This document shows, piece by piece, positions 8,445-41,287 of a stretch of 64,000 nucleotides of DNA (position 1 is the first letter of the stretch; the number at the start of each line of letters is the position of its first letter). The DNA is taken from positions 24,279,707 to 24,343,706 of the forward strand of contig NC_057737.1 of assembly GCF_004010195.1 (NCBI RefSeq). Reading direction: 5' to 3'. Under the pieces are notes generated by a model. That model was not told the origin of the DNA. It worked only from the letters and a program-made list of their open reading frames with translations, and did not search any database. The DNA comes from Chiloscyllium plagiosum. Its lineage: Eukaryota. Position numbers and translations under genes: made by a program.

Positions 8445-8576
8445 AACTATCATAGCATTATAGAAGAGCTTCAGCTGACTGGTGAACTCTGGGAGGATCC
8501 TGAATTTCTCCCTAAACCTTCATCACTGACCTATGAGGATGTGCCACCAGAAGGAATCAAATGGATCCGTACCTTG
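8445..8576 (+). CDS. Calpain exon, start of the CysPc domain (NYHSIIEELQLTGELWEDPEFLPKPSSL...KWIRTL)
   Basis: Matches the calpain LFEDPxFP...WxRP motif; acceptor ttcag, donor TTG|gtaact. Confidence 0.88.
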
Positions 8577-9551
8577 GTAACTATATGATGCTTTCATATC
8601 AATTAGCCACTGTTAGTTGCAAATAACAAGTGTAATATTAGAAATTTGTAGCTTCTTCTCCAAGATAAAACAGCTGAGAACATTTGAATTTTCTGCAATG
8701 TGAAACGTGGACTATTTTGAGGTGATGAGTAGATAGAAATTTGTTTTGAACAACGGTGTAAAATATGAATGGTCACAAAGCCTCCCAATATATATCAACC
8801 CCAGGCCAACATATTGGGTGTGAGGATGGAGCAAAAACAGGCGGCCTGTATGATACTGTCTGTTTAGCATAATTCCCAATGACTAAATTCTACATTATTA
8901 TTTCTTACAAATAGTTTAAGGCATTCTGTCCCTTACAGAATTAGCAATGGAAAACAAGTGGCTCATCATAGCAAGAAACACTTGATATAGTTTTATTTTA
9001 GTTTTATCAAACTGGTAGGCAGAAAGCAACAGAAAGCAACATAACTGAATAAGATTAAAAACTGAAACTGCTTCAGTATCACAATCAGCCAGGGCAGAAA
9101 AGAAAGCAGATGGATTGACCTTTTTACCTGTTAATGAGAGTACAATTCAAGAAAAATTTCTTTGGACCAAGATTCATTCAAAATGTAATGCTATCAGCTT
9201 AATATCTGAATGTCAGCTCATTTCATTAAATTCTCAACCTATCAGCTTGTTTCTTTCCAAAGTGAAGTATCTTGAGGATTTTCATTAAATTAAGGATGCT
9301 ATATAATTTGGAGAAACACTTAACAACAAAAAGGTTATAGGATATATGGGGAAAGAGCAAGGATATGGGATTAATTAGGTAGCTTGATCAAACAGCTGGG
9401 GCAGGTTCACTGGGCCAACTAGCCTCTTTTTCTGCTACATTGCTATATGATTTGAAGCAATACAAGTTGTTAATTATTCATTCCTTATGATTGAAATGGT
9501 GAACTGAGAGGTGTGCCATATTATTTAAATTAGTTATTTCTCTGTTACTAG

Positions 9552-9696
9552 GAGCTGCACGAAAATGCCTTCTTTATGACAGATGGAGTTAGCAAAAGTG
9601 ACATTATACAGGGGGAGTTGGGAGACTGCTGGTTCTGGGCCTCCGTGGCTACAATAGCTAATTGCAAAAGGCTGATAGAATGGGTTATTCCAGCAG
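9552..9696 (+). CDS. Calpain exon with the catalytic Cys (DIIQGELGDCWFWAS)
   Basis: QGxLGDCW motif, Cys codon at 9627-9629; acceptor tag, donor G|gtgaga; phase 0/1. Confidence 0.96.
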
Positions 9697-9946
9697 GTGA
9701 GAATTCATATGTTTAAAATTTAGATTTAGAGTTAATAATAATTTTTATGTTTTGTGATCACATTTTAAACAAAAGATCAAAAAAGAGCTAGAAATTTAAG
9801 CTTTATAGAAATATAATGTCTACTGTATTACGAATGTATTACGAATGTAATGTATTACGAATAATTTGACCTGACCAAGAACTGACCAATGGCCATTGAT
9901 TCTTGTTTGAAATGGGACTCCTGACTTTTGAAAAGTGATGCCTAGT

Positions 9947-10175
9947 TTTAGATTCTCTCACAAGTGGAAACGACTCTTCACGTATACCCTGCCAAGACCC
10001 CTCAGGATCATATATGTTTCAATCAAGTCATCTCTTATTCTTCGAAAGTTAAATGGATACAAGCCTAGCCAATCCAACCATTCTTTATAAGACAATCCAT
10101 GCATTTCAGGTATTGGTCTAGTAAACCTTCCCTTAAGTACTTCTAACACATTTATATCTTTCCTTAAATAATGAG
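9947..10175 (-). mobile_element. CR1-type LINE RT C-terminal fragment
   Basis: RFTRPIPEMHGLSYKEWLDWLGLY...RRIRDDLIETY is typical of the CR1 ORF2 end. Confidence 0.75.
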
Positions 10176-11440
10176 ATCATTACTGTCTGCAATAGAGTTT
10201 GGAGGGCACATTCCAACAATTCTAACTGTGTTATTGGTGAAAATCTACAAAACAATGGCTTTGGTTATGGCACTAAGTCCAGTTTGTTTTAAAGACTGGA
10301 TCACCAGTTACCAAATATTAGGATTGGGATGCAGCTGGAGGCTTTTAGCTAATCCTCTGAATTGAATAAGCTTCACAGCACAATCAGTCTCATAATTTAG
10401 TTTATGATATCTCCTAAGTCAGGTTACAGATTTGTTGCTCATCTTAAAATTATTATTGGGACATGTTTACCAACATACATTCAGTCGTGAATCATCTGAC
10501 ACTCGTACTATCTTTAGCTTTGGATTATTTTAATGTAGATATTTAACTATTATTTTTAAGTGATTTAATACTTGTTTAAAAATAGCACAAAAGGGATTTA
10601 ATAGTGGTGCAGTTAGAGCTAAAATTCTGGTTTTCTTAGTGAGTGTGTTTTCCTTTAGTGGGCCAATAATTATGGCTATCCCTAATTGTCCTTGATTGAA
10701 CATCTCCTTAAACCACTGCAGTCCATACATCTGCAAAATGGCAGCAGAAAGTTTTGGAGGGAAGTCTAACATCTTCTGATAGCCATGAAACTTTTCTGAA
10801 GTAACCTCGTTTTTTTCTCATGGGTTCCGAATAATTGAGGCATTCCCTCTCTAGAACTGCAGCCTCTGTTAAACTGGTCCACCAGATTTTGGTGGCTATT
10901 GTCAGTTAATTGGTCGATGCTGGTAATATATAACAGGTTTCTCCCTTTCAGCCCTGGTGAACAGGACTTACCAGCAATAGGCAATTTGGTAACATAGGAA
11001 GGTCTACTTGCATTGGAAAAGGTTATTTGACTGACTGAATTCCACACACACACCCTCCCTCCACACCCCCTCTGTTCCCGCCCAGGCCTCCAATGTAATA
11101 ATCATCTCATTGACCCAACATGGTGTCACTTCAACATTGCAGCAGATCACCTCCATCTATGGATGTATTTTACTATAATTCGCACTGTACTCAGCATGTG
11201 ATAGCACATTTCTACATCTTCTTTCAAGTCTTCATCCACAGTTTACTTATTGAAGACGTGATTCATTATTATTGCATTTTTGGTTCTGTTGCAAGGGCTT
11301 TTGCATATCTTCCTCTCTTCCTGTTAATTGTCTTCTTTTTCTTTTTTTCCTGAAGTGATGGTTACATGAAGGGATACAATTTCACAAAGTTAAAAATCAC
11401 ACAACACCAGGTTATAGTCCAACAAGTTTAATTGGAGGAA

Positions 11441-11475
11441 CACTAGCTTTCGGACCGTCGCTCCTTCATCAGGTG
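11441..11475 (-). ncRNA. Minimal hammerhead ribozyme (family A), core intact
   Basis: Minus strand reads CAC-CTGATGA-A-GGAGC-GAC-GGTCC-GAAA-GCTA-GTG; stem I CAC/GTG, palindromic AGCT stem III, one stem II mismatch. Confidence 0.75.
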
Positions 11476-11700
11476 GTTGTGGAGGGCTCAATCCTAACAC
11501 ACAGAATTTATAGCAAAAGTTTACAGTGTGATGTAACTGAAATTATACATTGAAAAACTGATTGTCTGTTAAGCCTTTCATCTGTTAGAGTACCATGATA
11601 GTTTCACTTCTTTCATGTGTAAATCACAAAACCTTTTTTTAAAAAGTTGCATTCTCAGGTTAGCTGTTAACAATGGTGATAGCTAGACAATATGTTGAAG

Positions 11701-12028
11701 ACAAGGGAGTCGCGGAGGGAGTGGTCTCTACGGAAAGCAGTCGCGGAGGGAGTGGTCTCTACGGAAAGCGTCGCGGAGGGAGTGGTCTCTACGGAAAGCT
11801 TCGCGGAGGGAGTGGTCTCTACGGCTTTCCGTAGAGACCACTCCCTCCGCGACGCTTTCCGTAGAGACCACTCCCTCCGCGACGCTTTCCGTAGAGACCA
11901 CTCCCTCCGCGACGCTTTCCGTAGAGACCACTCCCTCCGCGACGCTTTGCTGCCTGACCTGCTGTGCTGTTCCAGCAATAAAGTTTCAACTTTGATCTCC
12001 AGCATCTGCAGACCTCACTTTCTCCTCG
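11701..12028. mobile_element. Nested PLE-derived insertion: 4+4 fold-back 30-bp tandem array plus a family-B 3' terminus
   Basis: 12-bp TSD aatatgttgaag at 11689-11700 and 12029-12040; the unit gctttccgtagagaccactccctccgcgac encodes AFRRDHSLRD. Confidence 0.9.
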
Positions 12029-12577
12029 AATATGTTGAAGGTGTTAGCCCCCTGTGTTCTCTGTCTATGCCATGTCGTTTAGATTGATTCTAATCTAAAA
12101 AGTGAGATAACGGAGTTTTACATGAATTCATGCAGTTTTTGAGCTCAGAGTTCTACATGAATGCATGCAGTTTTTGAGCAAAGTACAATGTAACCCTGCA
12201 AGTACAAATTTATAACTATAACCTGGTGTTGTGTGATTTTTAACTGTGGATAAATATGGACTGAGATATGGCAGAGCAGTTTATAAGTACTCTGCTGCTA
12301 CTCTAGCTGGTCCCAATTCGAAATCTCCTGTTCAGAGCAATGGGCTAACACCTACAACATATTGTCTAGCTATCACCATTGTTAACAGATAACCTGAGAA
12401 TGCAACGTTTTAAAAAAAAGGTTTTGTGATTTACACATGAAAGAAGTGAAACCGTCATGGTATTCTAACAGATGAAAGGCTTAACAGACAATCAATTTTT
12501 CAATGTATAATTTCAGTTACATCACACTGTAAATTTTTCCTATAAATTCTGTGTGTTAGGATTGAGCCCTCCACTAC

Positions 12578-12612
12578 CACCAGATGAAGGAGCGACGCTC
12601 CGAAAGCTAGTG
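12578..12612 (+). ncRNA. Hammerhead ribozyme (family A), core U4>A
   Basis: CAC-CAGATGA-A-GGAGC-GAC-GCTCC-GAAA-GCTA-GTG. Confidence 0.65.
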
Positions 12613-13070
12613 TGCTTCCAATTAAACCTGTTGGACAATAACCGGTTTTGTGTGATTTTTAACGTTGTACACCTCAGTCCAACACTGGCATCTCCAAATC
12701 ATGACAACAATTCCACAAACATAATTTGGTATCCTAACTGAGTGAGTATCACTCATATGTTGATCTTGGCAGTGCATATTGGCAAAACGTTTCTCTCACT
12801 ATCATTCAAAATCCTACAATATTACCAGGGATCACTGTTATAATAGTGCTAAACCTGGTGGATTTGTTTTCCTCCCTAAGCCAGATGCTGTAAGGACAGC
12901 ACTTACAGTAAATTAATTAACATGACATTGACCAAGGAGATCAGGTGACTGTGGCAACCATGCAGATTAAAGAGGTATCCTAACTTTCCTGAAGTCTAGT
13001 TCTGGCTGTGCAAAATCTGGATATAGAAATCCATTACCATGTATAAATTATCTTGACTTCCATTTGCTCC

Positions 13071-13274
13071 GGTTTTCTCATACAATCCAAAAATTTGCAG
13101 GTCAGGTGAAGTCGTCATGCTAAAGTGCCCATAGTGTTAAGTGCATTAGTCACAGGGTAAATATAGGGTAGGGGAATGGATCTGGGTGGGTTATTCTTTG
13201 GAGGGTTGGTGTAGACTTGTTGGGGCGAAGGGCCCTGTTTCCATACTGCAGGGAATCTAGTCTAATCTAATCTA
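13071..13274 (+). mobile_element. HE1-type SINE, 3' part
   Basis: Matches 61025-61207, including the (TCTAA)n tail. Confidence 0.75.
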
Positions 13275-15974: not shown

Positions 15975-16177
15975 GGAGTTGAAAAGTGTGGCACTAGAAA
16001 AGCACAGCAGGTCGGGCAGCATCCAAGGAGCAGGAGAGTTGACATTTCCCTGATAAAGGGCTTATGCCCAAAACATCGACTCTCCTGCTCCTTGGATGCT
16101 GCCTGACCTGTTGTGCTTTTCCAGCGCCACACTTTTCAACTCTGACTCTCCAGCATCTACAATCCTTGCTTTCTTCT
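15975..16177. mobile_element. Miniature palindromic PLE-derived element (family B)
   Basis: 13-bp TSD tgttgctaaaaat at 15962-15974 and 16178-16190; about 70-bp inverted arms around a decayed hammerhead (CTGATAA-A-GGGC-TTAT-GCCC-AAAA). Confidence 0.85.
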
Positions 16178-17439
16178 TGTTGCTAAAAATAGATTTGGTA
16201 CATTTTATAAGTCATGCTGATCCAACACTGGGGTATTGAGTTTGAAATTGGTTCTGTCCAGTTTTTTTATAATCCCCACTGTGTTTGATAAGCTGCAATA
16301 GCAATAATTGCTGCTGTTAATCCATTAAGGTTACAATAGAATAAACTCTAGAAATCCAAGCATGACTTGAAATATGCCCATTTGGGTGTCTTTTGGCAGT
16401 GTCCCTGTATCAGGGTCAGAAGTGTCCCACCTCACACAAGTGTGTTGTAACATGTCGAAACAGATTGATAAAAATAAATGTCTTTAAAGATGATTTGTAA
16501 GGGAAAAAGATATGTCCACTTTGAAATGTTAGGGCAAGTGAAAGAACTATCCTGATACTTTCTCATCCTCCCTCTAATTGGCATCATATATAACCACAAC
16601 ATGGTTGTGCCTTGATTTGTCAAACATATTTAGTTAATACTTTAATGCATCACAAAATCCTGTTCACCTATTACTCTTGTGGAGCCTTGTAAGTATGCTT
16701 TGACTGAACAAAGATCTTGTGGCTGTATTAGGAATACATCTGAATAGATGATAACATAAAAGTAGAAGATATTTGAAGATAATTAGTTGGACCTGTTATT
16801 TGCTTGAAAACAAGAAAATGTATTCAAATTTCTGTATCTAATTCTCTATTACTATGACTACCCAGTACAATATTCATATTCCTTGGTGGTTAAGAAAAAA
16901 TGTTCAAAAATCCAAGAAGTGTTTACTGACGATGAGTTACAGAAGGCAGTTCTAAAAATTTGTTTTTTGGCAAGCATTTATAACAGGCATAATCACAGAA
17001 GCCATACTGTCATATTATGCATTAAGTACTTTCTTCCAATTCATGTTACTGGATTATTCTGCCAACATTTCTAGGAAAATGAATACCTTCTGCATAATAC
17101 AAGTAAATACAATAGCTGTCAAACTGATTGTTAGTATGTTTCAAGTGAATAATGTGTACATTGCAAGCTCATCCATCAATTCAACATGTTCTGAATGAGG
17201 GACAATTGCTTTGGATGGCATAACATTGGTTTGAGGAATGAACCAGAGAATTGCTGACACCTCTTTTGTTCAGTAGAAATAGAAGCAGTATGTATCCATT
17301 CTTCCTGTCTGCAAAGAGCAAGCTTGTGTATTAGCATATGATGCTTCCTGTCCACACCAGTATACTATACAACAAGTTTGACTGACAATTTTAAATGGTT
17401 GTCAGCGTAAATCTTGGCACTCTCAGGAATGTTTAGTAC

Positions 17440-19767: not shown

Positions 19768-19803
19768 AATCCATGTTTCAGGCATAGGCCCTTCTTCAGG
19801 AAT
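19768..19803 (-). ncRNA. Hammerhead ribozyme-like motif (family B), partly decayed
   Basis: Minus strand reads ATTC-CTGAAGA-A-GGGC-CTAT-GCCT-GAAA-CATG-GATT; the cleavage triplet is altered. Confidence 0.55.
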
Positions 19804-19958
19804 GAGGAAAGTATGTCCAGCAGGCTAAGATGAAAGGTAGGGAGGAGGGACTTGGGGGAGGGGCGTTGGAAATGCGATAGGTGGAAGGTGATCAAGGTGA
19901 GGGTGATAGGCCGGAGTGGGGTGGGGGCGGAGAGGTCAGGAAGAAGATTGCAGGTTAG

Positions 19959-20920
19959 NNNNNNNNNNNNNNNNNNNNNNNNNNNNNNNNNNNNNNNNNN
20001 NNNNNNNNNNNNNNNNNNNNNNNNNNNNNNNNNNNNNNNNNNNNNNNNNNNNNNNNNNNNNNNNNNNNNNNNNNNNNNNNNNNNNNNNNNNNNNNNNNNN
20101 NNNNNNNNNNNNNNNNNNNNNNNNNNNNNNNNNNNNNNNNNNNNNNNNNNNNNNNNNNNNNNNNNNNNNNNNNNNNNNNNNNNNNNNNNNNNNNNNNNNN
20201 NNNNNNNNNNNNNNNNNNNNNNNNNNNNNNNNNNNNNNNNNNNNNNNNNNNNNNNNNNNNNNNNNNNNNNNNNNNNNNNNNNNNNNNNNNNNNNNNNNNN
20301 NNNNNNNNNNNNNNNNNNNNNNNNNNNNNNNNNNNNNNNNNNNNNNNNNNNNNNNNNNNNNNNNNNNNNNNNNNNNNNNNNNNNNNNNNNNNNNNNNNNN
20401 NNNNNNNNNNNNNNNNNNNNNNNNNNNNNNNNNNNNNNNNNNNNNNNNNNNNNNNNNNNNNNNNNNNNNNNNNNNNNNNNNNNNNNNNNNNNNNNNNNNN
20501 NNNNNNNNNNNNNNNNNNNNNNNNNNNNNNNNNNNNNNNNNNNNNNNNNNNNNNNNNNNNNNNNNNNNNNNNNNNNNNNNNNNNNNNNNNNNNNNNNNNN
20601 NNNNNNNNNNNNNNNNNNNNNNNNNNNNNNNNNNNNNNNNNNNNNNNNNNNNNNNNNNNNNNNNNNNNNNNNNNNNNNNNNNNNNNNNNNNNNNNNNNNN
20701 NNNNNNNNNNNNNNNNNNNNNNNNNNNNNNNNNNNNNNNNNNNNNNNNNNNNNNNNNNNNNNNNNNNNNNNNNNNNNNNNNNNNNNNNNNNNNNNNNNNN
20801 NNNNNNNNNNNNNNNNNNNNNNNNNNNNNNNNNNNNNNNNNNNNNNNNNNNNNNNNNNNNNNNNNNNNNNNNNNNNNNNNNNNNNNNNNNNNNNNNNNNN
20901 NNNNNNNNNNNNNNNNNNNN
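19959..20920. other. Assembly gap (962 N)
   Basis: Run of N. Confidence 1.
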
Positions 20921-21020
20921 CCCTCACCTTGACCTCCCTCCACCTATCGCATTTCCAAAGCCCCTCCCCCAAGTCCCTCCTCCCTACCTTTCATCTTAGC
21001 CTGCTGGACACACTTTCCTC

Positions 21021-21056
21021 ATTCCTGAAGAAGGGCTTATGCCCGAAACGTTGATT
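21021..21056 (+). ncRNA. Minimal hammerhead ribozyme (family B)
   Basis: ATTC-CTGAAGA-A-GGGC-TTAT-GCCC-GAAA-CGTT-GATT; palindromic ACGT stem III. Confidence 0.72.
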
Positions 21057-22192: not shown

Positions 22193-22376
22193 GCCAGTAT
22201 ATTACTGGGAAATGTCCATATTATGGAATCTTTCGATTCCGATTCTGGCAATTTGGGAAATGGGTAGAAATTTTGGTGGATGATTATTTGCCAACAAGAA
22301 ATGGACGACTTATTTATGCCAGATCAGAAGCTGAGAATGAATTCTGGCCGTCGCTTTTTGAAAAGGCATTTGCAAA
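22193..22376 (+). CDS. Calpain exon (YGIFRFRFWQFGKWVEILVDDYLP...EFWPSLFEKAFAK)
   Basis: Hallmark calpain motifs; acceptor cag, donor AA|gtaagt; phase 1/2. Confidence 0.97.
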
Positions 22377-25791: not shown

Positions 25792-25972
25792 ATTGCATGG
25801 CTCCTACAAGGCGATTGAAGGAGGGTATACATTGGATGCTTTGACCGATCTTACTGGGGGTGTTGGTGAAATCTACAGATTTTCAGAATTTGCAGATAGG
25901 TATGAGGAGCTGTACAACCATCTCTCTGCTGCTTCCAGGAAGAATGCTCTAATGGCCTGTGGAACAGGAAAG
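25792..25972 (+). CDS. Calpain exon (LHGSYKAIEGGYTLDALTDLTGGVGE...LMACGTGK)
   Basis: GSY..L.GG...DxTGG motif; acceptor cag, donor AAG|gtcaga; phase 2/0. Confidence 0.97.
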
Positions 25973-26313: not shown

Positions 26314-26881
26314 TTGGGAACCTCCTGCGAAGCGCTTCTTTGATGTTTCCTCCGGTGTTTATAGTGGTCGGTCCCTGCTGCTTCCGGTTGTCAGTTTCAG
26401 CTGTCCGTTTTAGTGGTTGGTATATTGCCAACAGCTACGCTCAGACAACAACTCACCAGAACGAAGGACCCGATACCCAACATGAGCAAAACTAATGTAG
26501 TGTACAAAATACCATGCAAGGACTGCACAAAACACTATATAGGACAAACAGGAAGACAGCTAACAATCCACATACATGAACATCAACTAGCCACGAAACG
26601 ACACGACCAGCTATCCTTAGTAGCCACACACGCAGACAACAAGCAACATGAATTCGACTGGGACAACACTACTATCATAGGGCAAGCCAGACAGAGAACA
26701 GCCAGGGAATTCCTAGAGGCATGGCATTCATCCACAAACTCCATCAACAAACACATCGACCTGGACCCAATATACCAACCACTACAGCGGACAGCTGAAA
26801 CTGACAACCGGAAGCGGCAGGGACAGACCACTATAAACACTGGAGGAAACATCAAAGAAGCGCTTCGCAGGAGGCTCCCAA

Positions 26882-26921
26882 GCACTGATGATGTCGCCTA
26901 GCCAGGGGACGAAATATTTGC
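26882..26921 (+). ncRNA. Minimal hammerhead ribozyme (family C)
   Basis: GCA-CTGATGA-T-GTCGCC-TAGCCA-GGGGAC-GAAA-TATT-TGC; ACGT changed to ATAT, still palindromic. Confidence 0.72.
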
Positions 26922-28452
26922 AACAAAAACTTCCAGCTCGGCGAACAGAACCACAACAATCTCAACCTTGTAAATAGGATAATAAAAGCAACAACTGACT
27001 TTTGGATGTATTGGTAACTAATGCTGAAATATTTTTCAAATTATCTTTATTTGCCTCCAATGACTGTTGTGTTAAAAAAATCACAATAATAAAACTTCAG
27101 GTTTCCTGTTATCTTCATCATCGATGACAGACTTGCTGATAGCAGCTTCTTCTTTCAATAATAAGAAAATATTAAATACAGGAACACCAATGTTTATAAA
27201 ATAAAAATGTAAGTTTTAAAGATGAAAGGAGTTGAAATTGATATTCCCCTTAATATTGTTAATTAGTTCTTTGGAGAGCACCTACTGCTGGTGAAGCCAT
27301 TTTCCTGTGAAAATAAAATGTTTTTAAGGTAACATGAAATGGTTGCATTTTTCACTCATTAAACATCTTGTCAGTTGCAATATCATCCCCTTCATTGACT
27401 TTAATGGAATGACAATTGGGCATGTTGTGTAGTGGGCAGATCGTTAAATATTGTCCATTTCACTGTTTTGTCCAAACCTTACTTTCTCCTCTGCCATTGT
27501 TTTCTTGGTCAGTTAACCCCAAGATACTCTGCTCCATTTTCACTTTTTCTTTTGTATTTATGGAATCTGATCCAGAATTTTAAGATCAGCTTGTTCATAG
27601 ATTCTATGTGTAATTTTTTTTAAGTGCTGTGCCCAGCGCTTTTGTCTCTAGCTCTTTTTTCTTGAGGATTTTTCCCTGTTCACTTTAGTTTTCTCTCCTC
27701 CTATCCTGACTGTCAATAGTCTTTCCACACAGCAATTTGAGGTGCGTGATCTGGAAGTGAGCATCTTACTCAATTGGAAGACTATTATAGCCAAACTAAT
27801 TTGTTGATATATGCTTATTTTGGTGCAGGTAGTGATCAGGATTAAAGAATGCTCGCGCTAACTTTAGTCAAGGACTGACTTGGCTAATCACAAGTTTCAA
27901 ACATTTACACTGTCTGAGATCAACTAGTTCAGCCTAGATTCAGAGAGGAATCTGAATCCTCCCCAATGCCTGGCTTAATTCCAAGTTGCTAAACTAATTG
28001 GAGACATCTATGTTTTTGATTCATAAAGACGAATTTAAATTACATACAATTACACTACCATGAAGAGACACATTCTTATATCCAATCTACCTGAATTAAA
28101 CAATAACATGAAATTATTGCATTTATGTTTGCATTTAATTCCAACTTCAACATTTCTATTAAAACATTGTGTTGTGATAATGCTTGTAATTTAAGAAGTT
28201 CCTACTGCTGGCAAGGTTCCATTAAGCTTAATGACAAATTGTCTGCACACTCTCTGAGACTTTTACTTGTTGTTTTCGTGAACGGAGTAGCTACTGGGTG
28301 AAGCTCCTTGATAGCAGTACAAACCTGGAATATTTAACTGTCAGGATCAAAGCTAAGTATTTGATCATAACACCACAAGCAATAGATGAATTCCTATAAT
28401 TTCTTTTGCAGTATTTGTGACTTACCACTGTCTCTATTTAAATGTTATACAG

Positions 28453-28524
28453 GAAGTTGAAAGATGTGGAAAGCAAGATGGCTTAGTAGCTGGGCATGCT
28501 TATAGCGTCACAGCAGTAAGAAAG
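28453..28524 (+). CDS. Calpain exon with the catalytic His (DGLVAGHAYSVTAVRK)
   Basis: GLVxGHAYSVT motif, His codon at 28495-28497; phase 0/0; donor AAG|gtaaac. Confidence 0.96.
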
Positions 28525-31203
28525 GTAAACTATTAGAATAGAAAGTATTTTCTTAGTGCAAAATTCTCCCGTTTCATTATGTCCCCCTGAAATCCTCAAC
28601 CATCACAGTCTATTTTAAAGGATGTGTTGACCTTTTTACTGACAATGTAGACCTGCATATATTAGACAAATATTAATAATTAATTTATGATGTTGCTATT
28701 TAGTCCATTCATCCTGTCATTTTTTAAAATCTGTCTCTCACTTGGTGCTTCCAAATTCTGAGAGTCTCGATTATGTCCTTTGTGAGAGCACGAAGCTTTT
28801 GAGATATCACTACTGAGACATCCTGGTAATCTATTTGTCACTTTCTCCTGCCACATTGGACCATTGAATTTTGTCCGTCTCTGATCCACAGATTCTTATC
28901 CTCTCTTGCCCTTCTCAGTTTATCTCTTTTTCATTTCATACCCAAAATTTACCTCTTCTGATATGTACCAATTTCCTTTCTGCACTGATATTTGACTTTG
29001 TCTGCACCTAGCTCTCTGTCTCTTTGTTTTATTTCTCTCTACCTATCCCCATGATCCCACGATGTTTTTGTTTCTGACTCTCCTGCTTCCCCACCTACCT
29101 CAAACATTTTGTTTTTCTCTTCAGCTTGGCTTCATTTTATTCACACGCTCTCAGTACCACCCAAAAGAAGACATCAAACACTGGTGAAGCAATATAGAGA
29201 TGGGGAAAGCCACAAACAGCTGCTCAAAAATTATTTGCTCTCAATAGAGAAAGAGAGAGAGAGCAGCAGGCACAATGGGCTAAGTCCCCTGAGTTTTATA
29301 GCTATTCAAAGACTTAGCTTGAACTAGAATGTAGGGAGGTGCACAGTGGGGCACATGTTGGGTGAAGGAATGAAAACTGCAGAAGGATCTGTGGAGACAG
29401 AGAAGGTTGTAAATTGCTGAACAAAAAAATTACCTGGTGAATTGGAAAGGAAGAGGTCAAGGAGGACAAGGGCTTATAGGGGAGTTGGATGGAGGTAGGG
29501 AGGCTATATTGCAGCTAGAACATTGGGAATAGCAAACCTGGGTACAATGGGAATAGGATGATGGTTACAATATAATTTATTAAATAACCATTAATTGTCA
29601 CAATAACAACAAACTTCATTTATTGTTGACAGTTGCAGCAAGCTTTGAGTTTGCAGGAATTATAGATGGAAGAATCAAGTCAAGATATCTAAGCACACTA
29701 TAGAATTTAAAGTACTTATAAGCAGGAGTTATAGTATTGTCAGATCAAATTAATATTGGTATTTATTATTCATCTATTACAGAATAACAGAGTACTATTA
29801 AATCATGACAAAGCAAAATAGGTGCTAGCATAAATTGTTTAAATGCATTAATCTTTTATTTTAAAGAATTAAGGTTCTGATAATTTTCAAGAAGGCTAGA
29901 AGAATGGGTTTGTGGGTTGCATTTGGTAGTAAATATTCAATTCCAAATATCATTTCTGCTCACTGTAAATAATAAACACAGAAGAGACCTTCTTCGTCAT
30001 TGCAAGATTAACTTCTATTTATATAGAAACTGATCCCTTCTTCAGGAATTTCTAAAGCATTTCTTCATCAGTGAATTATTTTTTGAAATGCAGTCACTTT
30101 CATTAGATTAGCAAATGTGGTAATAAATTGAACACAAACTTACATTTCTATAAAAGTATATTATGGAACATGGCAAGATCAGAAACAAATGAGATGGTGA
30201 TATTAATTGGCTTGGTTTATTCTGGGAGATATTTAACATTTGTGTCATTAGTTCAGCATTCATAATGGATCGCCATAGCATATTGATCATATCAATTACC
30301 AATGGAGCTGTATTGAATCTTCAATACAATGACATTTTTCACTCATATTTTCTTAAGTTCAGTGCATGAAGAACAAAATAGCCCTCAGTTCCCTGTGCTT
30401 GAAAACATGGCGTTTCAGTGGCTGAAACTTCATCATCATATAAAATATAACCCTCAGTTATCTGAGTATTGTGTCTTACATGACTTAACGTCTCCTTCCC
30501 AAATACAATAGCAAGCATTTGGCTTGTGTTCTGTAAAGTTTATATGAGGAACTTGTCTGATGATGGTAGTCAGAAGCTGATCCCTTGTGTTTACATTACA
30601 ATGTGTTATATGGTATTGGAGCATTGTGCTGTTACACATCATCCAGTTTGGATTATTTTGGATCAGTCCACTGTTCTTTTATTCTGTATAATCTATTAAT
30701 CATCCACTATTGCTGGAAAAGTTTCTAGCTAGTTGTTACACTATGTTAAAAACAAATTGATCAGGCCATATAACTCAGGCCCATGTATCAGCCTTGCTAC
30801 TTAATTGTGTGATTGTATCTTTCTCTTTCCCACCTTTCTGTTTTTGCATTAGAGTATTTACACTGAATGATGGACTCTGTTTCTTAACTTGTAGTGTTAA
30901 CACAGCTGAGGCAATTACAATCACAACCTTGCAAAACACAAAGCAATTTTCAAGTGAGCTATATTTCATACACACTTCCGGTGACCCCTCCCCCCCAGAT
31001 GATTCTCTTGGCCAAAATAAATGCGAAACAATTTTTGAAACACTGAAGTTTGTTTTGATCATGTATATTTCTGCAGCTAAATGCTAGATGAGTATTTCCC
31101 CTTTTTTGTGCTTTAGTGTCTTCCCAGCTCTAACTGATGTTGATATAAATGATTTGCATTGTAAAATACCAATTATACTTCTTAAAATATTTTTTTGTTT
31201 TAG

Positions 31204-31298
31204 CTAACCACTCCAAAAGGGAGGGTGCCCCTTGTTCGGATTCTTAATCCTTGGGGATCAGGCCACAATATGGAATGGACAGGTGACTGGAGCGATGA
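31204..31298 (+). CDS. Calpain exon with the catalytic Asn (LVRILNPWGSGHNMEWTGDWSD)
   Basis: NPWG...EWxGxWSD motif, Asn codon at 31246-31248; phase 0/2; donor GA|gtaagt. Confidence 0.96.
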
Positions 31299-32849
31299 GT
31301 AAGTGTCATCAATACTGCACTGCTGTAACCATATTGAGCTATAACAGGGGACAGCTGGCCAAGTCGTGTTTTCACAGTGGAATAGGTAGTCTGACAATTA
31401 AATGGGGATTAGGGTGCTGAGTGGAGAGTAAGGTGTGGGGTTGTTGAAGGAAGGAACAGCTGGGTGGGAGTGGTAGGGTGAACAGAAGTGGTTGGTAGGG
31501 CGCCAGGTAAGTGGATGGGGGCTCTGGTTAGGATAGGAGTATTTGGGGGTTTTCTGATGTGTCCAGTTGTGGAGGTAAGGATCATGGGATTGGGGGTGAT
31601 TGGAGTCAATCAGTTCATGGATGAGTGTCGGTGAGGGTGGGTGTCAGAACCTGCGAATGTGCTCGAGAGTCAGGTGTGGAGAGTCAAGGGGACGGGAATC
31701 CATGCAGGATAGTCACAAGGCATTGTGCGTCAGGCTGGTTGCGATGTCAGGTCCATAGGGAGTAGCCGGGTTAAATTCAAGGATCAGGTTTTTGGGTTGG
31801 GTGCTGGATCCAGGGAGGTGTGGGTTGGCTGTTTGCCGGGGTTAGTTTTATACTTATCCAGGAATTACAGCAAGTTTTAATCCCTCTAATTTTACCCTGG
31901 CAAACTATTTATGTAAATAAGTCAGAACTCTTCAAAAGTTCCAAATTTAACTCAACATTTGAGACTACTTCAATGGGGTCCAGGCACAGAGTAATAGCCC
32001 ATCGAAAATTTCAACTTCCTGGGTAGCATTTTGGAAGATCTGGGCCTGTTAGATTCATGTTGTACATTTGTTATTTTTTTTTTCGAAAACATAAGAACCT
32101 CATATTTCCAGTACTGATCTCACAATGTGTACAAACATTTAGAGAAACAAATGAGCAGTATTGCATCGGAATGTTGTGCAACACCAAACCCACGTTCCTT
32201 TAAGTCACCTGGCTGTCCAGTTTGAAAAGCAATAATTTGTATTTATGTACCATGCTTAATATATAAAAATGCCACAAAACATAAGTTAAAGGTGACAGAA
32301 TGTGCTAAGGAGTTGTAGAAGGATCAGAGAAGCAGAGTTGAAAAGATGGAAAAGAAGGTAAAAGATCCAATAGGACTTTGACAGGTGACAAGCTCTGCTG
32401 TAAATTAAGGATTTTCTGGTGTCAATTTAAACAGCTCTCAAGCTTAATGTCAGCATCCTTGTTTAAGCACATGCTGAGTTGAATGTTTAATGTGACTCAG
32501 GATCCCAATACTCCAGTGCATTCGCACCTGATGCTCAGTTTTTGATGACCGTTGGTTAGGACAATAGGAGATCCTCCAGAACTATAAGATCTGCAGATTT
32601 ACTGTTGTGAGTGAGAGCTGCTGATGTCGGGTGGAGAACAACAGACCATCTCCATCTCTTGACTGTATTTTAATTTTGTCAATGGGAGTTGGTGTCTGCA
32701 TGCCATTTCACAAATGCTGAAAACCTTTATAGACCCCTTAAGTGGCCCAGTAGTCCACCTGTTCTTTGCAGACAGGTAGTCACCCTGAACTAAAATGGCC
32801 CAGAGTTTGGAAAGGGGTGCAGTGGATACAAAGCAGTGGGCCTAGCATA

Positions 32850-33130
32850 TTTTAAGGGTAAGAGGAGAAAGATTTAAAAAAGACATGAGGGCAATTTTTT
32901 TTTACACAGACAGTGATTCATGTGTGGAATGCACTTTCAGAGTAAGTGGTGGATGCGGGTACAGTTACAATGTTTAAAAGACATTTAGGTAAGTACATGA
33001 AAAAAAAATGTTTGGAAGGACATGGGCCAAACACAGACAGGTAGGCTAGTTTAGTTTGGAATTATGGTCAGGGTGGACTAGTTGACTGAAAGGTCTGTTT
33101 CCGTGCTGTATGTGTTTATGATTCTATCTA
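32850..33130 (+). mobile_element. CR1/HER1 3' end fragment
   Basis: Homologous to 48835-49115. Confidence 0.8.
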
Positions 33131-35276
33131 TCTCCAGTACTGCTTCCAAAGCCATCTGAAAATTTGGCCCGTTTTAAAATATTTTTCAGTTTTATTTCAG
33201 TCCACTAGATGGCTTTATCGACCTTAACATTGGCTAGTTATAAGATTAGTAGTGGCACATCAGCTTTGCTTTATGAAATCAATTTATAACTAACTTGAGT
33301 CCATCAGCTATGATTTAGTTCATGTTTTATGCTTGATCATATTCAGCTTTGTATTATTTTACCTTAACATTATTTTACAATTGTTGGCCATTTTTCTGTT
33401 TTGTTTTCTTTTGCTAAGTCAAGTGACCATGTATTATAGCAGCTGCTCCTTCACTGTGATTTAACATGCAATGTTATACATTGGAACATTTCTGGAATTC
33501 AGGAAATTCCAAGTGACTTTCTGCTGCACATATATCTACCAATAGGCATAACTTCTCATATCACACTTTGAAATGAGGACAGGACTTTTGAAATTCAGAA
33601 AACATGAACCAGGAAGACTATTCAACATTTCTCAGCTCACTAACTCTTCAACTTCGGAACTCGACTGCATCACTCCTCATATTGCCTCCAGTATTTTTGC
33701 TTCCATCGTTCCCAATATCACATGTAATTACTACATTTTTGTGCGATAAAAAGTTATACACTCTAAAATTTACATTTTATCATTGTAACCAGCTCCATCT
33801 CATCCTAATATCAAGCTTGATTTGATGGAGTCTTAGGAAACCAATTGTTCTAAAGTTTTTATGTGTATCTCAACATCAGGCCTGTCTTTGTTGGCCCATT
33901 TCGAGAAATAAGAACCCATATTCTCCAATATATATCTTTCATCCAAACTCAATCATGTGGAACAATTCCAGAGACTGGATATCACTTCTGTGTGTTGGTG
34001 ACAAAAGTTGATCATATCTTCAACCCTTCCGTAGCATCAGATTGGATTGTCAACTTTCCTTTGTGTAATTCTGACTGAGAGGACATTAATAATTATAGAA
34101 CTTGAATGAGAATTGAATCACCCTTATTGCACAGGAACATTGCCACTTTTAAATACTCATTTTCCCTAGATTCAATAGTTGATTGAATGGTGCAGCAAAC
34201 TCAATGGGCTGAATGGACTGGTTCTGCTGCTATGTCTTATAGCCTATTATCAACACCCACACAGGGAAAATAAGATTTGGGTTGTAGGAAGAAGTTCAGG
34301 AGGCATCAGCATTGGTATCATGCCCAATTTTGGTGTCTTTGCTATTTGAATTGGATCTCAATTAGCTTTGTAAATGTGGGCTCCATCTGTGTTCGACAGA
34401 TAATACTTGTTATTGTTGATTTAAATAATAAAAGGCACTTACGTTGTCCTTTTTGTGAAATATTGCATTGGAGGAAAGTGACAGTATTGCATTTTTACTG
34501 TTTGTTTTGCAAACCTATCAGATCTGTTTGATAGTTTCAGCACTTTGCTAATACATATCTGGAATAAATCATTTTAGTTCATCTGGTTGGGCCCACAGGT
34601 TAAAAAAAAAGCATATACCATTTCTTACCAGGAAGCTAAAATTGTGAGAAATTAAGTTGTAGGACAAAGTGGTACCGAGGTTTGTTGATGCTATAGAAGG
34701 CACAGCAGCATTGCATGATTGGAGTAGGGGTGTTCCTCATAGGTGAGGCTTAATAGCATGTTGGAGGAGAATGCAGAGCAGTTTTTATGTTTCCTTTAGG
34801 CTACCTCATTGAATGTTTTAAGTTAAAGACAGATAGAGTTTTGAACAGGAAGAGAATCAAGGGTTATCGTGAGAGGGTGGGTAAGTGGATATTTGTGGAT
34901 GTGGTGCCAATCAAGCGAGCTGCAGCAATGTACTGGAGCTGAGATGACTGAGATGTCAATTGCAACCTGATGCCAAGGACAGTCACTCTCACCTCATCTC
35001 TGGAGTTCAACGCTGTGATTTATATCCGTTCTTGCATTTCATATTTTGATGAGTTTGAATAAATGTTTAATCCACAGAAAATAACTATCCTCATCTGAAA
35101 TTAACATTTCCTCAAGTATCCATATTTTTGAGAGCTCTGTGTTGCCATGTTTGTGTTAGAAAGTCTGCAACCCTGAAATTCTGAATAACTGTGCCTTTAT
35201 GAAAAGAGGGCTATGATAGCCAGCATGCTTGTTAAAAGAAATGAATGTCAACATGATGTTTCTTCCTTTTGCAAAG

Positions 35277-35354
35277 TTCTCCTCTGTGGAACCAAATTCC
35301 AATCTGGACCAGAGAAGCATTTGGATTCACCAAAAAGGATGATGGGGAATTCTG
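35277..35354 (+). CDS. Calpain exon (SPLWNQIPIWTREAFGFTKKDDGEFW)
   Basis: DDGEFW motif; 78 nt; phase 2/2. Confidence 0.93.
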
Positions 35355-35466
35355 GTAGGATGGGTCATTCCATCAGTTTTGTGTTATTTAATAACTGTAG
35401 TTTTGCTGGATATTTTCTTGGTCGATCTTCTAGCCACCACAGTCAAAGTGCTATCTTATTTCACAG

Positions 35467-35552
35467 GATGAAGTTTGATGACTTCTGTAAAAGGTTTACA
35501 ACTGTTACAGTATTGACTCTGGGGCCTGACTTTGATGGTGATGGAGGTGCAG
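35467..35552 (+). CDS. Calpain exon, end of CysPc (MKFDDFCKRFTTVTVLTLGPDFDGDGGA)
   Basis: WMxFxDFxxxF motif; phase 2/1; 112-nt upstream intron. Confidence 0.93.
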
Positions 35553-36059
35553 GTAATGACAAGAGTTGTATTAAGGAATATTACTACTTTTTTTTGCATG
35601 GAGGGAACTGCTATTCTTATTTAAAAAGGACAGAAAATAACAAAAAAAGAACTTTTTGGCTGCTAAGTCCAATCAAGATATTCACCAAGATGGTGGAAGG
35701 GAGGCTGAGGGGTGGGGAGGTGTTGCGAGGGGAGGGGAATTGAGCAAAACCTGAGGTCAAGGCCAGATCACACATTATTTGAGCAGGGATCAAAAATCAC
35801 TACAATGTTGACAGAAATGAATACTTCAGAAGAATCTTTTGCTGCCCATAATCTGTACAGTTCCCTTTGCCAGGTATATCAATGCATCAGGAGAAAGGGA
35901 AGGCAGCAACCTACTGCAGAGAGGTTTGTAATCGACAGAACAAGCCAGATAGCAGATCAGTCATGAAAGCACATCTGTAATCTGGGTATGGTTCAAAAGC
36001 AGGGCATGGTGAGCATGGCATTATTATCCTCAATGTAGACACCCCAGTACTTCACCTTC

Positions 36060-36420
36060 ATACCAGACTGTGCTTCCAGGCATCCATGGGGACATCGGGG
36101 AATTGAACACTTTTCTGTGTGCCACTTAATTAGAAAAGTACCTGGCACTTTGTTTATCCAGACAGCACATGCACACATATCTGTTTAAATCAAACACTGG
36201 CAATTGTAGCAGTACAAATAGTTTCACCGAGTTGTTGTTTTGCCAAGATTTAGAAATTATTGACCACTACATTTGCACGTGATCATTCATGCACCTATTG
36301 GCAAACCTGAAATCTACCGAAATGGCAAAGGCTATTATTCCAAACCCTTGCTTTATGACTGTACACACAGACCTAAATGTTCTAAACACATAACATTGAA
36401 CAGGAACTGTAGCCCAAACC
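36060..36420 (+). mobile_element. Possible ancient PIF/Harbinger transposase remnant
   Basis: HVIIHAPIGKPEIYRNGKGYYS resembles the HARBI1-type IDGTHVxIxAP...YxNRKGxHS motif; frameshifted. Confidence 0.5.
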
Positions 36421-37037
36421 AGGACATATTGGAAAATCAAGAGGAATGTGCTAAGTGAAGCAAATAAGATTTTTTATTAATCATCTGTACTTGATGATGT
36501 ACTCCCTGGGTAGTGTACATGGGATGATGCATGACCATGTGTGTAAGTGATATCTTAAACAAGGAAATAATGTCGAGTGAGTTACTATGTAACATAAAGC
36601 TTATTTAGTACTATAGATACATTTGAAACTTGAAACATTTACTTTCAGGAAATTTAATGGCAAATTAATAAAGTACAAACTGAATTTTTGCTTATCCATC
36701 ATTTGATAAAAGGTCAGCTTATTGTTCACGCTTAAACGCTAGCGAGGCCTCTCTTGTAGCCTCATAATTCAAATTTGCAAGGGCACAACCTCCGTCATCA
36801 CCCCTGCAGCCATTTACCACAGTACTAGTCAAGTATTTTAAAAATTATTACACCCACGTGCCTTTCGAAAATGACTGCACTTGGTGCTGTTTTGTGCCGG
36901 AGAACTTTCCCTTTCGCCAAATCTCTTATGTTGAGAGTTAATTCAATAGAATACCATTTTTTAAAAATGATGCTGTCAGAGCCAAAAATGCTATAATGAA
37001 AGACCTGTTATCATTTTTCCTTCTCTTGTCTTCACAG

Positions 37038-37166
37038 ATGCTGGCAGCTTGCAAGAGGTAAAGGGTCAGTGGGTGACTGGAATTAATGCAGGTGGATGCA
37101 GAAATAATATAAAGAAGTATAGCTGCAACCCTCAGTATCCCATCACTATCACAGCCCCAGGAGCAG
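37038..37166 (+). CDS. Calpain exon, start of domain III/CBSW (VKGQWVTGINAGGCRNN...NPQY)
   Basis: GxW..G..AGGCRN...NPQY motif; phase 1/1. Confidence 0.95.
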
Positions 37167-37587
37167 GTAATAAAGCATCTCCTGTGCAAATACCTCACTT
37201 CCCAAAATTGGGACATATCTCTTGGACGTTGTGCTAATTGTGTTTGCCTTTGAGTTCTTCAACTAAGGTGAAGAAATCTTTACAGAATTAATGTTGTAGA
37301 TGAAATTAGTTAGAGACAAGTATAAAAAATGAATTGGGGTGGGGTGAAAACAGGTTGTTGGTCCCAGGATGTACTAGAGCTTGGCCTCTCTTGTGCTATG
37401 ATTACATATAAAGGATATGTAGCAGTCTATTAGAACAGAAGCCATAGAGAGCAAATTAGAGACTGGGAGCTAATAATATCTATAAAGTGAAAGCTACATA
37501 AGTGCCTGAAGACTATGTTGATAGTGTGAGGGAAAGAGGGTGGAAAAAGTATGAAATCGAACATAAGTATGATACAGATTAATAGAG

Positions 37588-37613
37588 GAGAAAGTGAGGT
37601 CTGCAGATGCTGG
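37588..37613 (-). mobile_element. 26-bp PLE 3'-terminal micro-insertion
   Basis: 15-bp TSD tacagattaatagag at 37573-37587 and 37614-37628; the insert is the inverse of about 11999-12024. Confidence 0.8.
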
Positions 37614-39464
37614 TACAGATTAATAGAGCCAAGTGATCTGTTTCTATGTTGTAAATTCACTGTAAAGGTAAATGCAGTGTAAAGGTGAATTATCTTTTGC
37701 AAGGGCCAGATGTTGGAGTGAGTTGCAATCAAAGGTCTAGGCCCAGGTGTTTTCAGCACTGGTTTTTAACTCCTTGCTTTCTTTTTGTTTCCCATAAGCT
37801 TAACTGGTTTCTGTACATCTGGCAGTTTCTGTATATCCTGGGACCAACAATGACCTCAGCTGCAGTAATCTGCACACCAGAAATTACATACATCTACCCG
37901 ATGTTTTCAGTTTCCTTAACTTACCCCGATCAAAACAAAATGTTTATTTTAAATGAAAAAGGGTAAGCATCAGAGTTAGGTGGTGTGAAAACATTTGAGT
38001 AATATATTGCACTTCTCCTTTGCAAAGTAAAGAATTACTTCCCTTTTTGAGTTGTGAAGGAAATGGGGGATGAATGACTTTGGTGATGTGAAGAAACTAG
38101 AGAAGCTGGGATTGTTCTCCTTGCAGCAGAGAAGGTTATGGAGATAGTTAATTGAGATGTTCAAACTCATGATGGGTTTTTATTGCGTAAACAAATAAAA
38201 ACTGTTTCGGTACCAGAGAGTTAGTAACCAGAGATTTGGGTTATTGGCAAATAAACAGTATGCAATATTAAAACTTTTTTAAATGAGTTGTGATGGTTAG
38301 GAATGAAGATTCAATGTGAAATTTCAAAAGTGAATTGGATAAAATGTTGATGGGAATAACTTTTGTAGGATTCTGGGGAAGAAACGTCGGAATGGGACTA
38401 ATTGCAAAACTCTTTCATAAAGCTTGAGCACGTATGACAGGAGAATAGTCTCTTTCTATGCCGTTTGATTCTCCATGTCCAATCTGCCACTCAAGGGTCA
38501 GACTGCTGCTTCAGATTGGCCACACATTACAAATATGACTGCATTTTCCTTAAGTGAACAAGGTTTGATCCAAAATTAACATTAGGTTATGTCATGACTA
38601 AAGACTCCACTGAGTCACATTAGTTTTGCAGAGATTTGTCAACAATGATTAAATCTATTCCTTAAGGTTTCAACACATGAACTTCTCCCAAGCCATTAGT
38701 CAGCCAATACGTTCATCCTTATGACACACTGTCTTCTAATGGCAATTGGAAAACAAAAAAGATTTATTACCTGATTGGATGATGCTTGACTCTCAATCAG
38801 CCTTTTTCAATATTTTTAAATCTGGAAAAGAAAAACTGTTTTTAACGCTGTTCTGATTTTTCTTCTGGGTTGCACATAGCAGTGCTCTGGAGATTGATCT
38901 TATGTCTTGTTTTATCCACTGCATGGGGAATTCATATGATCTGATTATCATTCAAATCAAAACATTTCAAATACTTATCTAACATTTGTGGTGATAAGAA
39001 CAATCCTAGATATGAGGACAATGAATTATGTAATGATTACATCTGTTTGAAAGCCTCTTATAGAGATGTAATAGAATGACAGCTCCCTTCTACCACCCTT
39101 TCATAATCACCTGATGGGACATATGCTAGTGCAGGAGGTTGCAGCTTTATTTCATCTGATATCTCATTTGAAATTTGGATTATGCCAAGTTTGTATAAAA
39201 GGAAAACTGGGTATGAATCATGACCTTCAACTCTGCCATGATAGTAAAGCTGTCTATTTACAAATAGCAGGCTACCTTCAATGTGGCCAGGTGTTTGAGA
39301 AATTTCTTTGCAAGTAATGATTTTATTTTTCATCATACTGAAACATTTTGTTTAACTTTTTGTTCTGTTTGTGTGGTTACTCAGAAATTTCACTTGTTCC
39401 AACTGCATCTGTTCCATCAAATAAACAGCATGTTTCCGAACATGTTATCTCTGTCACTCTATAG

Positions 39465-39598
39465 ATACTCCTTCAAGCAATGATGAAGACAATGTAGATG
39501 AGACATGCTCTGTTCTGATATCTTTAATTCAGAATTATCGGAGGATGGACAGGAAGCTGGGCATCTCAATGCTTCCTATTGGGATCCAGATCTACAAG
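39465..39598 (+). CDS. Calpain exon, domain III acidic loop (DEDNVDETCSVLISLIQNYRR...IGIQIYK)
   Basis: C..L..L.Q..RR...IG..IY motif; phase 1/0. Confidence 0.93.
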
Positions 39599-40280
39599 GT
39601 AAATTGAGATTTCTTTGATGGTCAAGGAAGCCACATTTCTTTGCTAGCAAATCTATTCAACAATGACATTTAGTTCAGATGAGTTAGATGATTGAGGGGA
39701 AATAAATGTTTGTAACGTAGTCTTCTTTCTAAATCCTCCGCCAAAGGGAAACAAATGATCTGTATAGCATCTTAGTGTCTCACAGGAAACAGTAGCCTCC
39801 TTCAATCCAACTACTTACAGTGAATAATTATTATCATGGTATTGCATGCAGATCAGTTGTGTCTATAGAATGGTCTGTGGACTGCGAATTCACACAGTTC
39901 ATTTACGCCCATTTTTAGGTTTGAGTGTTCCAATTTAAAACTAACCTGCAATAATGCTTTAGTTTTAAACAAAATAAAGGTTACTGTATTACAAACTACA
40001 GCTGAAAGTTACTAAGTCAAACATGGTATAGTTATTAGCTAAGAATTCATCAGATGTGATGGCTCCTGTAATGGAATAGTTGGAGGTGTGACCCACATGG
40101 ACTGAGCATAACAGATTTTGGAAGGGAGGTAATGTTCCTTTATTTCACATTTACGGTACTACAGGTTGTGCTACTAGGAGTCTGGTTAAGTGCAGCAATC
40201 CTGTAGCAGGATCCTTTGTCGCTTTGTTGAGAAAACTCTACCTCTGGTGATACCTCTTGGAGCTCTTCTTGGAGTTCTGC

Positions 40281-40340
40281 CTGTGGTGATATCCCACAGC
40301 CTATTTAACACTGTGGTGATATCCCACAGCCTATTTAACA
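40281..40340. repeat. Perfect 30-bp tandem duplication
   Basis: ctgtggtgatatcccacagcctatttaaca twice. Confidence 0.95.
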
Positions 40341-41041
40341 CTGATCAAAATCTTAAGATGACTATTGTGGTAACTTTGACAAATCATTGATCCACAAAGC
40401 AAAATCAATAACTCTGGAATTTCCTGTAGTGTCCTTTTAGTTGTTCTCAGAAGCTTTGAATTCTCTCACCTTTAGGCAAACCCATTTAGTTGTCAAAGGG
40501 TTAATTAAATCCCAATTGTATTCACTTATTGGTGATGGCAAGATAATATAACAGTCTTTTGGCTGACATTAAAACAAGGACAGCCATATGACTTATGGGA
40601 GCTATTTTTCAAGATGTTGTGTCCGTTTTAAAAAGTCAGATTAGTTTTCTCTACAAAATAGGCTTACTTTTGTCAGGCCTATGTAATTATAAATTTGGTA
40701 TCGATTCTGCTGCAAGGCTAAGCTTTCTTTATTCAAGCACAAGGGAATGTAAATTAGTAAATGGCACAATATTATTCATCTTGTAGAAGGGGATCACAAT
40801 CTATTAGCTGTCAATAATCAAGCCAGGCATACTCCAATCTTCACACCATCTAAAGAATATATTAATTTTGTTTCAATCTACTTGCTAAGAAAAGATGTAC
40901 TGTGGATTAGACAGATGCTGTCACAGTCAGATGTTATCACGTCCAAAATGGACGTTCATTTTGTAATCTTCACAAGAACATCTATTACAAAGAAGCAAAT
41001 TATGTTGATCTCAAATTTTTATTTCTTTTTCATTCCAATAG

Positions 41042-41287
41042 TCCTTTGACCCACAACTGGTTCTAACCACAGAGCATTTTACACATCATAAAACGATTTT
41101 GGATTCAGGAGCCTATGTGGCCCAGAGAAGCATAAACCTCCGCAGTAAACTTGCACTGGGACACTATGTAATCATTCCAAGTACCTTTTCACCAGATGCT
41201 GATGGAGCGTTTATGCTACGTATATTCACTGACATTCCAATTCAGTTTCATCAGGGATTCAACCTTGTAACAGAAGGAATGGACTGA
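41042..41287 (+). CDS. Calpain last coding exon (…LGHYVIIPSTFSPDADGAFMLRIFTD…EGMD*)
   Basis: GxYVIIPSTFxP...FxLRIF closes domain III; strong polypyrimidine acceptor; TGA at 41285-41287. Confidence 0.93.
   Translation, partial: SFDPQLVLTTEHFTHHKTILDSGAYVAQRSINLRSKLALGHYVIIPSTFSPDADGAFMLRIFTDIPIQFHQGFNLVTEGMD

Follow-up and report, generated by a model that had tools for sequence, protein, structure and literature searches.

A 64,000-nucleotide stretch of Chiloscyllium plagiosum DNA (contig NC_057737.1, positions 24,279,707 to 24,343,706; hereafter the window) carries on its plus strand an intact calpain gene of 12 exons, which encodes a protein of 590 amino acids comprising a CysPc protease core and a single CBSW domain. 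This is a real, intact gene and a new vertebrate member of the Truncated calpain family, which has been described but not studied. The reading developed here, which we consider probable, is that it represents a jawed-vertebrate Truncated calpain that is predicted to be activated by calcium and is likely held at the membrane by myristate and palmitate.

Gene structure, protease core and C-terminus

The exons are separated by 11 GT-AG introns and the sole stop in the assembled reading frame is its final codon. An initial annotation of this DNA had described 11 exons between 8445 and 41287. These do splice in phase to give the 493 residues claimed, with the expected motifs in place (QGELGDCW at 9609, GHAY at 28492, NPWG at 31246 and LRIF at 41216), but an upstream exon (5146-5436) had been overlooked and the complete protein is longer by this much. 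The additional exon encodes 97 residues, has an in-frame TGA immediately before its ATG and runs in phase 0 into exon 2; the protein starts MGNSCSCTHTTVTQIH. The same N-terminus is found in a bamboo-shark database model (P0001) and in skate, sturgeon, paddlefish and bichir orthologues, and is seen in P0006, P0012, P0013, P0014 and P0033. A PET117 match on this exon (E=0.002, below the cut-off) was dismissed as chance. An N gap of 962 bases (19959-20920) falls inside intron 3, and it seems to hide no coding exon because the orthologues are continuous across that exon junction. The first AATAAA 3' of exon 12 is at 41767.

By the site list and CAPN1 numbering from the available part of PMC4057710 (Table 3), the protein agrees with CAPN1/2 at all 12 of the catalytic and calcium-ligand positions checked. 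These are the catalytic positions Q109, C115, H272, N296 and W298, and the calcium ligands G101, D106, E185, E302, D309, D331 and E333. The CysPc domain thus has a complete Cys-His-Asn triad and is predicted, as had been proposed, to be catalytically intact. All 12 positions are also kept in 14 of the 16 invertebrate members of the family, one of the others having D331N and the other being partial. A structural model of the skate orthologue, built from an 87-sequence alignment, has a predicted local distance difference test score of 83.8, with residues 1-53 below 50, and places two helices before the core; its best match is m-calpain (3bow), with a root mean square deviation of 2.9 over 492 columns spanning domains II-III. 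Two features near the active site mark the vertebrate clade, namely three residues inserted after NPWG (31246-31275) in comparison with CAPN1, and an unusual Trp within CWFWAS (9627-9644).

The stop codon (41285-41287) lies 19 residues after LRIF, close to the 20 or so first estimated. One DNA run spans 40634-41337 in one contig with three differing letters, none of them in the stop codon, although this run may not be independent of the assembly. All 17 orthologue records that contain the last exon, drawn from 10 species, stop 16-21 residues after LRIF, a count that omits partial records lacking that exon and takes the ends from database gene models. Pfam returns Peptidase_C2 and Calpain_III only, in 17 of 17 whole proteins scanned. 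Given this shared end, the early stop appears to be old and not a recent truncation, an alternative that the initial annotation had raised.

The same annotation had recognised no penta-EF-hand (PEF) or C2 exon before the convergent gene downstream, and none was found here by C2 profile or PEF query. Only 9.3 kb separate the calpain stop from this gene, which encodes a TLC domain. Across that interval (41288-50586) the C2 profile gave nothing above 4.6 bits, while detecting both CAPN5/6-type control loci (C6 and C15) at 23-65 bits, and a second-CBSW profile derived from CAPN10 gave at most 3.8 bits, against 134 bits at its own CAPN10 locus. A PEF protein query of the whole genome produced 21 matches, several of which lie next to loci of classical calpains and none of which falls on contig C28; the absence of PEF rests on this query, as our own PEF profile missed control PEF exons and was not counted.

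Family placement and distribution

The protein had been proposed to belong to a separate and unnamed calpain lineage. Its separateness is upheld, in that a calpain with CysPc and one CBSW falls outside the classical and CAPN5/6 clades in both trees and topology tests. The lineage does have a name, however, since the protein groups with AplTRUNC1 (P0057, XP_005105403.1), which the available text of Hastings et al. 2017 (PMC5650170) assigns to a 'Truncated' family that is weakly supported and goes back to the bilaterian ancestor. In a FastTree analysis of 175 rows, which remained after removal of redundancy from 393 sequences that passed a coverage filter, the window protein lies in a nine-row vertebrate clade (support 100) within a 36-row clade that includes AplTRUNC1 (99, Shimodaira-Hasegawa-like). 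IQ-TREE under LG+G4 with 63 rows recovers the vertebrate clade at 100/100 and a 25-row Truncated clade at 93/100, with one teleost row (P0247) near the root. Under a mixture model, applied to 43 rows after two outgroups and 18 other rows had been dropped, the Truncated family plus CAPN10 separate from TRA plus classical calpains at 100/99. Approximately unbiased (AU) tests, which used the 63-row set and followed inspection of the free tree, reject a grouping of the vertebrate clade with nine vertebrate calpains of the classical type (p=0.0012, with P0247 omitted) or with TRA (CAPN5/6; p=0.0038).

The trees also hold some further short or unusual calpains. P0149, P0106, P0158, P0098 and P0103 end soon after CBSW and are nested among classical arthropod calpains; the short layout arose again there, either by tail loss or by isoform choice. 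P0152 is a second amphioxus Truncated-family gene, has an MGCGAS start and pairs with CAPN10 at 88/85 in the mixture-model tree. Two orthopteran insect proteins, P0237 and P0277, fall in the Truncated clade with models that lack an MG start.

Intron positions in the calpain gene were set against those of seven paralogous loci in the same genome. Some junctions were misplaced by the automatic splice finder (the first donor of C13, two in C41a and one in C15), and only an incomplete model exists for C10, so doubtful junctions were counted as intron positions only where the DNA had been checked. The QGxLGDCW motif is indeed unsplit by an intron, as first noted, whereas all four classical loci examined have an acceptor right before the DCW codons. 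This is not diagnostic, however, because the motif is also unsplit in the CAPN5/6-type loci (C6, C15 and C48) and in CAPN10 (C13). The AK and WSD introns are common to the calpain gene and six of the seven paralogous loci, and the intron ten residues past the catalytic His (after HAYSxxxxxx) is shared with three classical loci only. The calpain gene has neither of the classical-only introns, QGxLG|DCW and F|FWQ (4/4 classical loci), nor the K|VIP intron that is present in CAPN5/6 and CAPN10 (3/3), and a phase-1 intron after VIPA is found in this gene alone among the compared loci. The pattern fits none of the named calpain groups. The three CAPN5/6-type loci lie at C6:112.80-112.82 Mb, C15:56.71-56.76 Mb and C48:2.787 Mb (the last seen in part only), and all have QGxLGNCW intact.

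Orthologues are carried in databases under automatic names. Searching with exon 4 yielded 32 proteins out of 37 candidates; the best of these, mostly auto-named 'calpain-A-like', come from Chiloscyllium, Hemitrygon, Narcine, Scyliorhinus, Heptranchias, Amblyraja, Callorhinchus, Latimeria, Protopterus, Acipenser and Polyodon; a profile search added orthologues from Polypterus and Erpetoichthys. The lineage is therefore not limited to cartilaginous fish, as had been supposed, since sturgeons, paddlefish, bichirs, lungfish and coelacanth also carry it. The window protein is 60-82% identical to the seven longer orthologues with which it was aligned, and a partial C. punctatum model is 95.7% identical over 323 aligned residues; the chimaera and catshark records are partial and were left out of the trees. 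The profile search scored 7995 candidates, of which 318 passed, and among the best 120 of these, examined by name, the fish orthologues are followed by invertebrates, with no teleost or tetrapod named. The nearest invertebrate matches are PEF-less calpains from amphioxus, tunicate, hemichordates, echinoderms, molluscs, annelids, a bryozoan, crustaceans and a tick. One sterlet model, P0015, fuses ULK2 with the calpain orthologue; this is probably an annotation fusion, and no ULK2 match was found within 80 kb either side of the shark calpain gene.

Predicted membrane anchoring and competing explanations

The start of the protein, MGNSCSC, fits the MGXXXS/T consensus given in the available text of PMC4736023 and constitutes a predicted signal for N-myristoylation (Gly2, Ser6) and palmitoylation (Cys5, Cys7). 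An N-terminal MG is present in 37 of 49 Truncated-clade records, which are partly redundant, as against 16 of 127 other calpains, and MG combined with a Cys at positions 3-10 is found in 31/49 and 2/127, respectively. Across shark, sturgeon, paddlefish and bichir, the first 16 residues hardly vary, whereas the remainder of the N-terminal extension diverges.

A mechanism can be proposed in which Met1 would be removed, Gly2 myristoylated and Cys5 and Cys7 palmitoylated, so that a flexible tether of about 50 residues would hold the calpain at the cytosolic face of the membrane. A local rise in calcium would fill the two core sites and align the Cys-His-Asn triad, and the activated enzyme would then make limited cuts in membrane-proximal substrates. 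PEF is the module for dimerisation and for contact with calpastatin, according to the available text of PMC7001764. Without it, the protein should not pair with CAPNS1, and would thus be a monomer, nor should it have the PEF docking sites for calpastatin. Location, and not a subunit or an inhibitor, would control such a calpain. There is a precedent in CAPN5, which requires S-acylation for membrane binding and activation (bioRxiv 2022.01.25.477766, available text).

A number of observations weigh against the reading of the gene as an anchored, active Truncated calpain. At the N-terminus, MG is missing from 12 of the 49 clade records, among them the Heptranchias and Narcine X2 models, which are full-length, and the skate and sterlet X2 isoforms begin downstream. 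Three RNA or possible-RNA runs over 28300-48200 gave repeat-derived reads only, with no exon joint, and one run gave no reads, so that they offer no evidence either way; the shared C-terminal end is, as noted, one of database gene models. No orthologue was found in teleosts, gar, tetrapods or jawless fish by searches that covered proteins and not genomes. For the trees, the ultrafast bootstrap of 93 for the 25-row Truncated clade is below the threshold of 95, and the original description, in its available text, terms its own support weak (PMC5650170). The trees contain no CAPN7, and no sequence in the set could be assigned by name to CAPN13/14 or CAPN17.

CAPN10 poses a further difficulty. It is conceivable, if rather doubtful, that the gene is the ancestral-type sister of CAPN10, the latter having arisen inside the Truncated family with a doubling of its CBSW domain and a loss of the core calcium sites, and the window gene having retained the old form. 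The AU test does not reject a clade of the gene with CAPN10 (p=0.124), and a link between CAPN10 and the Truncated family is suggested in the available text of Hastings et al. (PMC5650170). All five CAPN10 rows lack equivalents of D106, E185 and E302. The position of CAPN10 shifts with the outgroup: without long outgroups it falls on the Truncated side (100/99), beside amphioxus P0152 (88/85), whereas with outgroups it falls outside the Truncated clade. It forms the longest inner branch (1.29), which makes its position unsure, and it never pairs directly with the window gene in any free tree. The K|VIP intron that it has in common with CAPN5/6 is, moreover, missing from the window gene.

Tail loss from a classical or CAPN5/6-type calpain, either within vertebrates or only in appearance, with the gene still splicing to unrecognised PEF or C2 exons, is highly improbable and has been largely refuted. 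The intron after HAYSxxxxxx is shared with classical calpains only, and tail loss does recur, as in PEF-less P0149 and others nested among classical calpains. There is also a phase-0 GT after 41266 that scores 5/9 against the donor consensus, and donor strength alone can't exclude it because this equals the score of the gene's weakest real donor. These points are outweighed by the AU rejections of both placements, by the lack of any C2 exon or PEF match downstream, by a stop at the same place in every one of the 17 orthologue records, and by an intron pattern in which two classical-only introns and the CAPN5/6/10 intron are missing and one intron is unique among the compared loci. Another alternative accepts the family and denies the activity, such that the protein would be soluble or not an active calcium-dependent protease, for instance through a downstream start or a role as a scaffold. 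Orthologue models without the MG-Cys start are compatible with this, whereas the near-identity of the first 16 residues across shark, sturgeon, paddlefish and bichir and the retention of all catalytic and calcium-ligand residues make it unlikely. A membrane-held, calcium-activated Truncated calpain is accordingly the reading that we prefer.

Gene neighbourhood and relation to known calpains

Features of the calpain gene and its neighbours (positions in the window unless prefixed by a separate locus label)
Feature	Position	Strand	Content
PRPF8 exons	L001:5786-5938 (-), L002-L005	-	upstream of calpain
Exon 1	5146..5436	+	ATG, MGNSCSC, 97-residue N-terminal extension; phase-0 GT donor
Exon 2	8445..8576	+	CysPc begins
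Exon 3	9552..9696	+	calcium site 1 loop; QGELGDCW; catalytic Cys codon 9627-9629
Exon 4	22193..22376	+	CysPc, with Glu equivalent to CAPN1 E185
Exon 5	25792..25972	+	CysPc
Exon 6	28453..28524	+	GHAYS; catalytic His codon 28495-28497
Exon 7	31204..31298	+	NPWG; catalytic Asn 31246-31248; calcium site 2 equivalents of E302, D309
Exon 8	35277..35354	+	DDGEFW; calcium site 2 equivalents of D331, E333
Exon 9	35467..35552	+	CysPc end and linker
Exon 10	37038..37166	+	CBSW (domain III) begins
Exon 11	39465..39598	+	CBSW acidic and basic loops
Exon 12	41042..41287	+	CBSW end, LRIF, stop; Pfam Calpain_III E=8.7e-14
Last exon of convergent TLC-domain gene	50587..50965	-	Pfam PF03798 E=2.2e-8; limits space for calpain exons

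Upstream, on the minus strand, PRPF8 is arranged head to head with the calpain gene; about 9 kb separate the two ATG codons, and a shared promoter region is possible. The convergent TLC-domain gene appears to be more than 50 kb long (50587-50965, L011:2882-3031 and L013:949-1137, all on the minus strand), the L013 exon being assigned by eye with no Pfam hit. Tlcd2 (62.79 Mb) and Prpf8 (62.81 Mb) are adjacent in a 19-gene list for rat (PMC4501283, available text), and TLCD2 and PRPF8 are adjacent in a table of human 17p13.3 (PMC5876250, available text). It is because of this gene order that the neighbour is called TLCD2-like. The calpain gene is thus situated between PRPF8 and a TLCD2-like gene, and the rat and human order fits with loss of the calpain from the PRPF8-TLCD2 interval in mammals.

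A 319-bp direct duplication (4073-4391 and 5702-6020, 98.7% identical) lies either side of exon 1 and is either a recent local duplication or an assembly artefact. Intron 5 holds a 178-codon open stretch (26365-26898) that we take to resemble a retroelement GIY-YIG endonuclease.

A literature search found no description of the vertebrate gene, although mention may exist in subscription papers or supplements. The vertebrates in the available text of Hastings 2017 are human, Xenopus, zebrafish and Fugu only, its Truncated members come from mollusc, horseshoe crab, sea urchin and amphioxus, and there is no mention in that text of myristoyl, palmitoyl, shark, Latimeria or Callorhinchus; the activity and function of the family are left as an open question (PMC5650170). 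Likewise, in what is available of them, Macqueen and Wilcox 2014 (PMC4043111) treat classical calpains only and Rawlings 2015 (PMC4631099) does not mention shark or coelacanth.

The vertebrate calpain list has been built mainly from mammals, teleosts and classical calpains. The present gene assigns one more calpain family to the ancestor of jawed vertebrates, which implies that the most-studied groups lost it repeatedly. A broader and decidedly tentative proposal is that jawed vertebrates inherited a lipid-anchored, calcium-activated calpain free of a small subunit. This calpain, the living ancestral form of the family behind the poorly understood CAPN10, would have been lost at least twice (in teleosts, and from PRPF8-TLCD2 in tetrapods) and would persist in sharks, rays, chimaera, sturgeons, bichirs, coelacanth and lungfish. 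For the Truncated family, the gene provides a testable mechanism in which lipid anchors would replace PEF or C2. It also offers a natural minimal calpain, core plus CBSW, as a model for calcium activation without a regulatory tail and, if CAPN10 does derive from the Truncated family, an ancestral point of comparison for a human calpain whose core calcium ligands have been lost.

Among known systems, the closest is the Truncated family itself. AplTRUNC1, like the window protein, has CysPc and one CBSW followed by nothing, falls in the same clade in three tree analyses and begins MGCSSS, where the window protein has MGNSCSC. CAPN10 is possibly the nearest named vertebrate calpain, as it too has neither PEF nor C2 and has QGxLGDCW within one exon; it differs, however, in its two CBSW domains, in its introns and in the absence of both the core calcium ligands and the MG-Cys start, and in this genome it is a gene of its own on contig C13. 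CAPN5/CAPN6 (TRA-3) share with the window protein the lack of PEF, intact calcium sites and an unsplit QGxLGxCW, but end in C2 (at their own loci, C6 and C15), form a separate clade and have different introns. CAPN1/2 and their relatives share the fold of domains II-III, the triad, the calcium sites and the acidic and basic CBSW loops, whereas the window protein has no PEF, is only about 35-40% identical to these classical calpains and is missing two introns found only in them. The best functional analogy is with CAPN5, which is S-acylated and membrane-bound (bioRxiv 2022.01.25.477766, available text).

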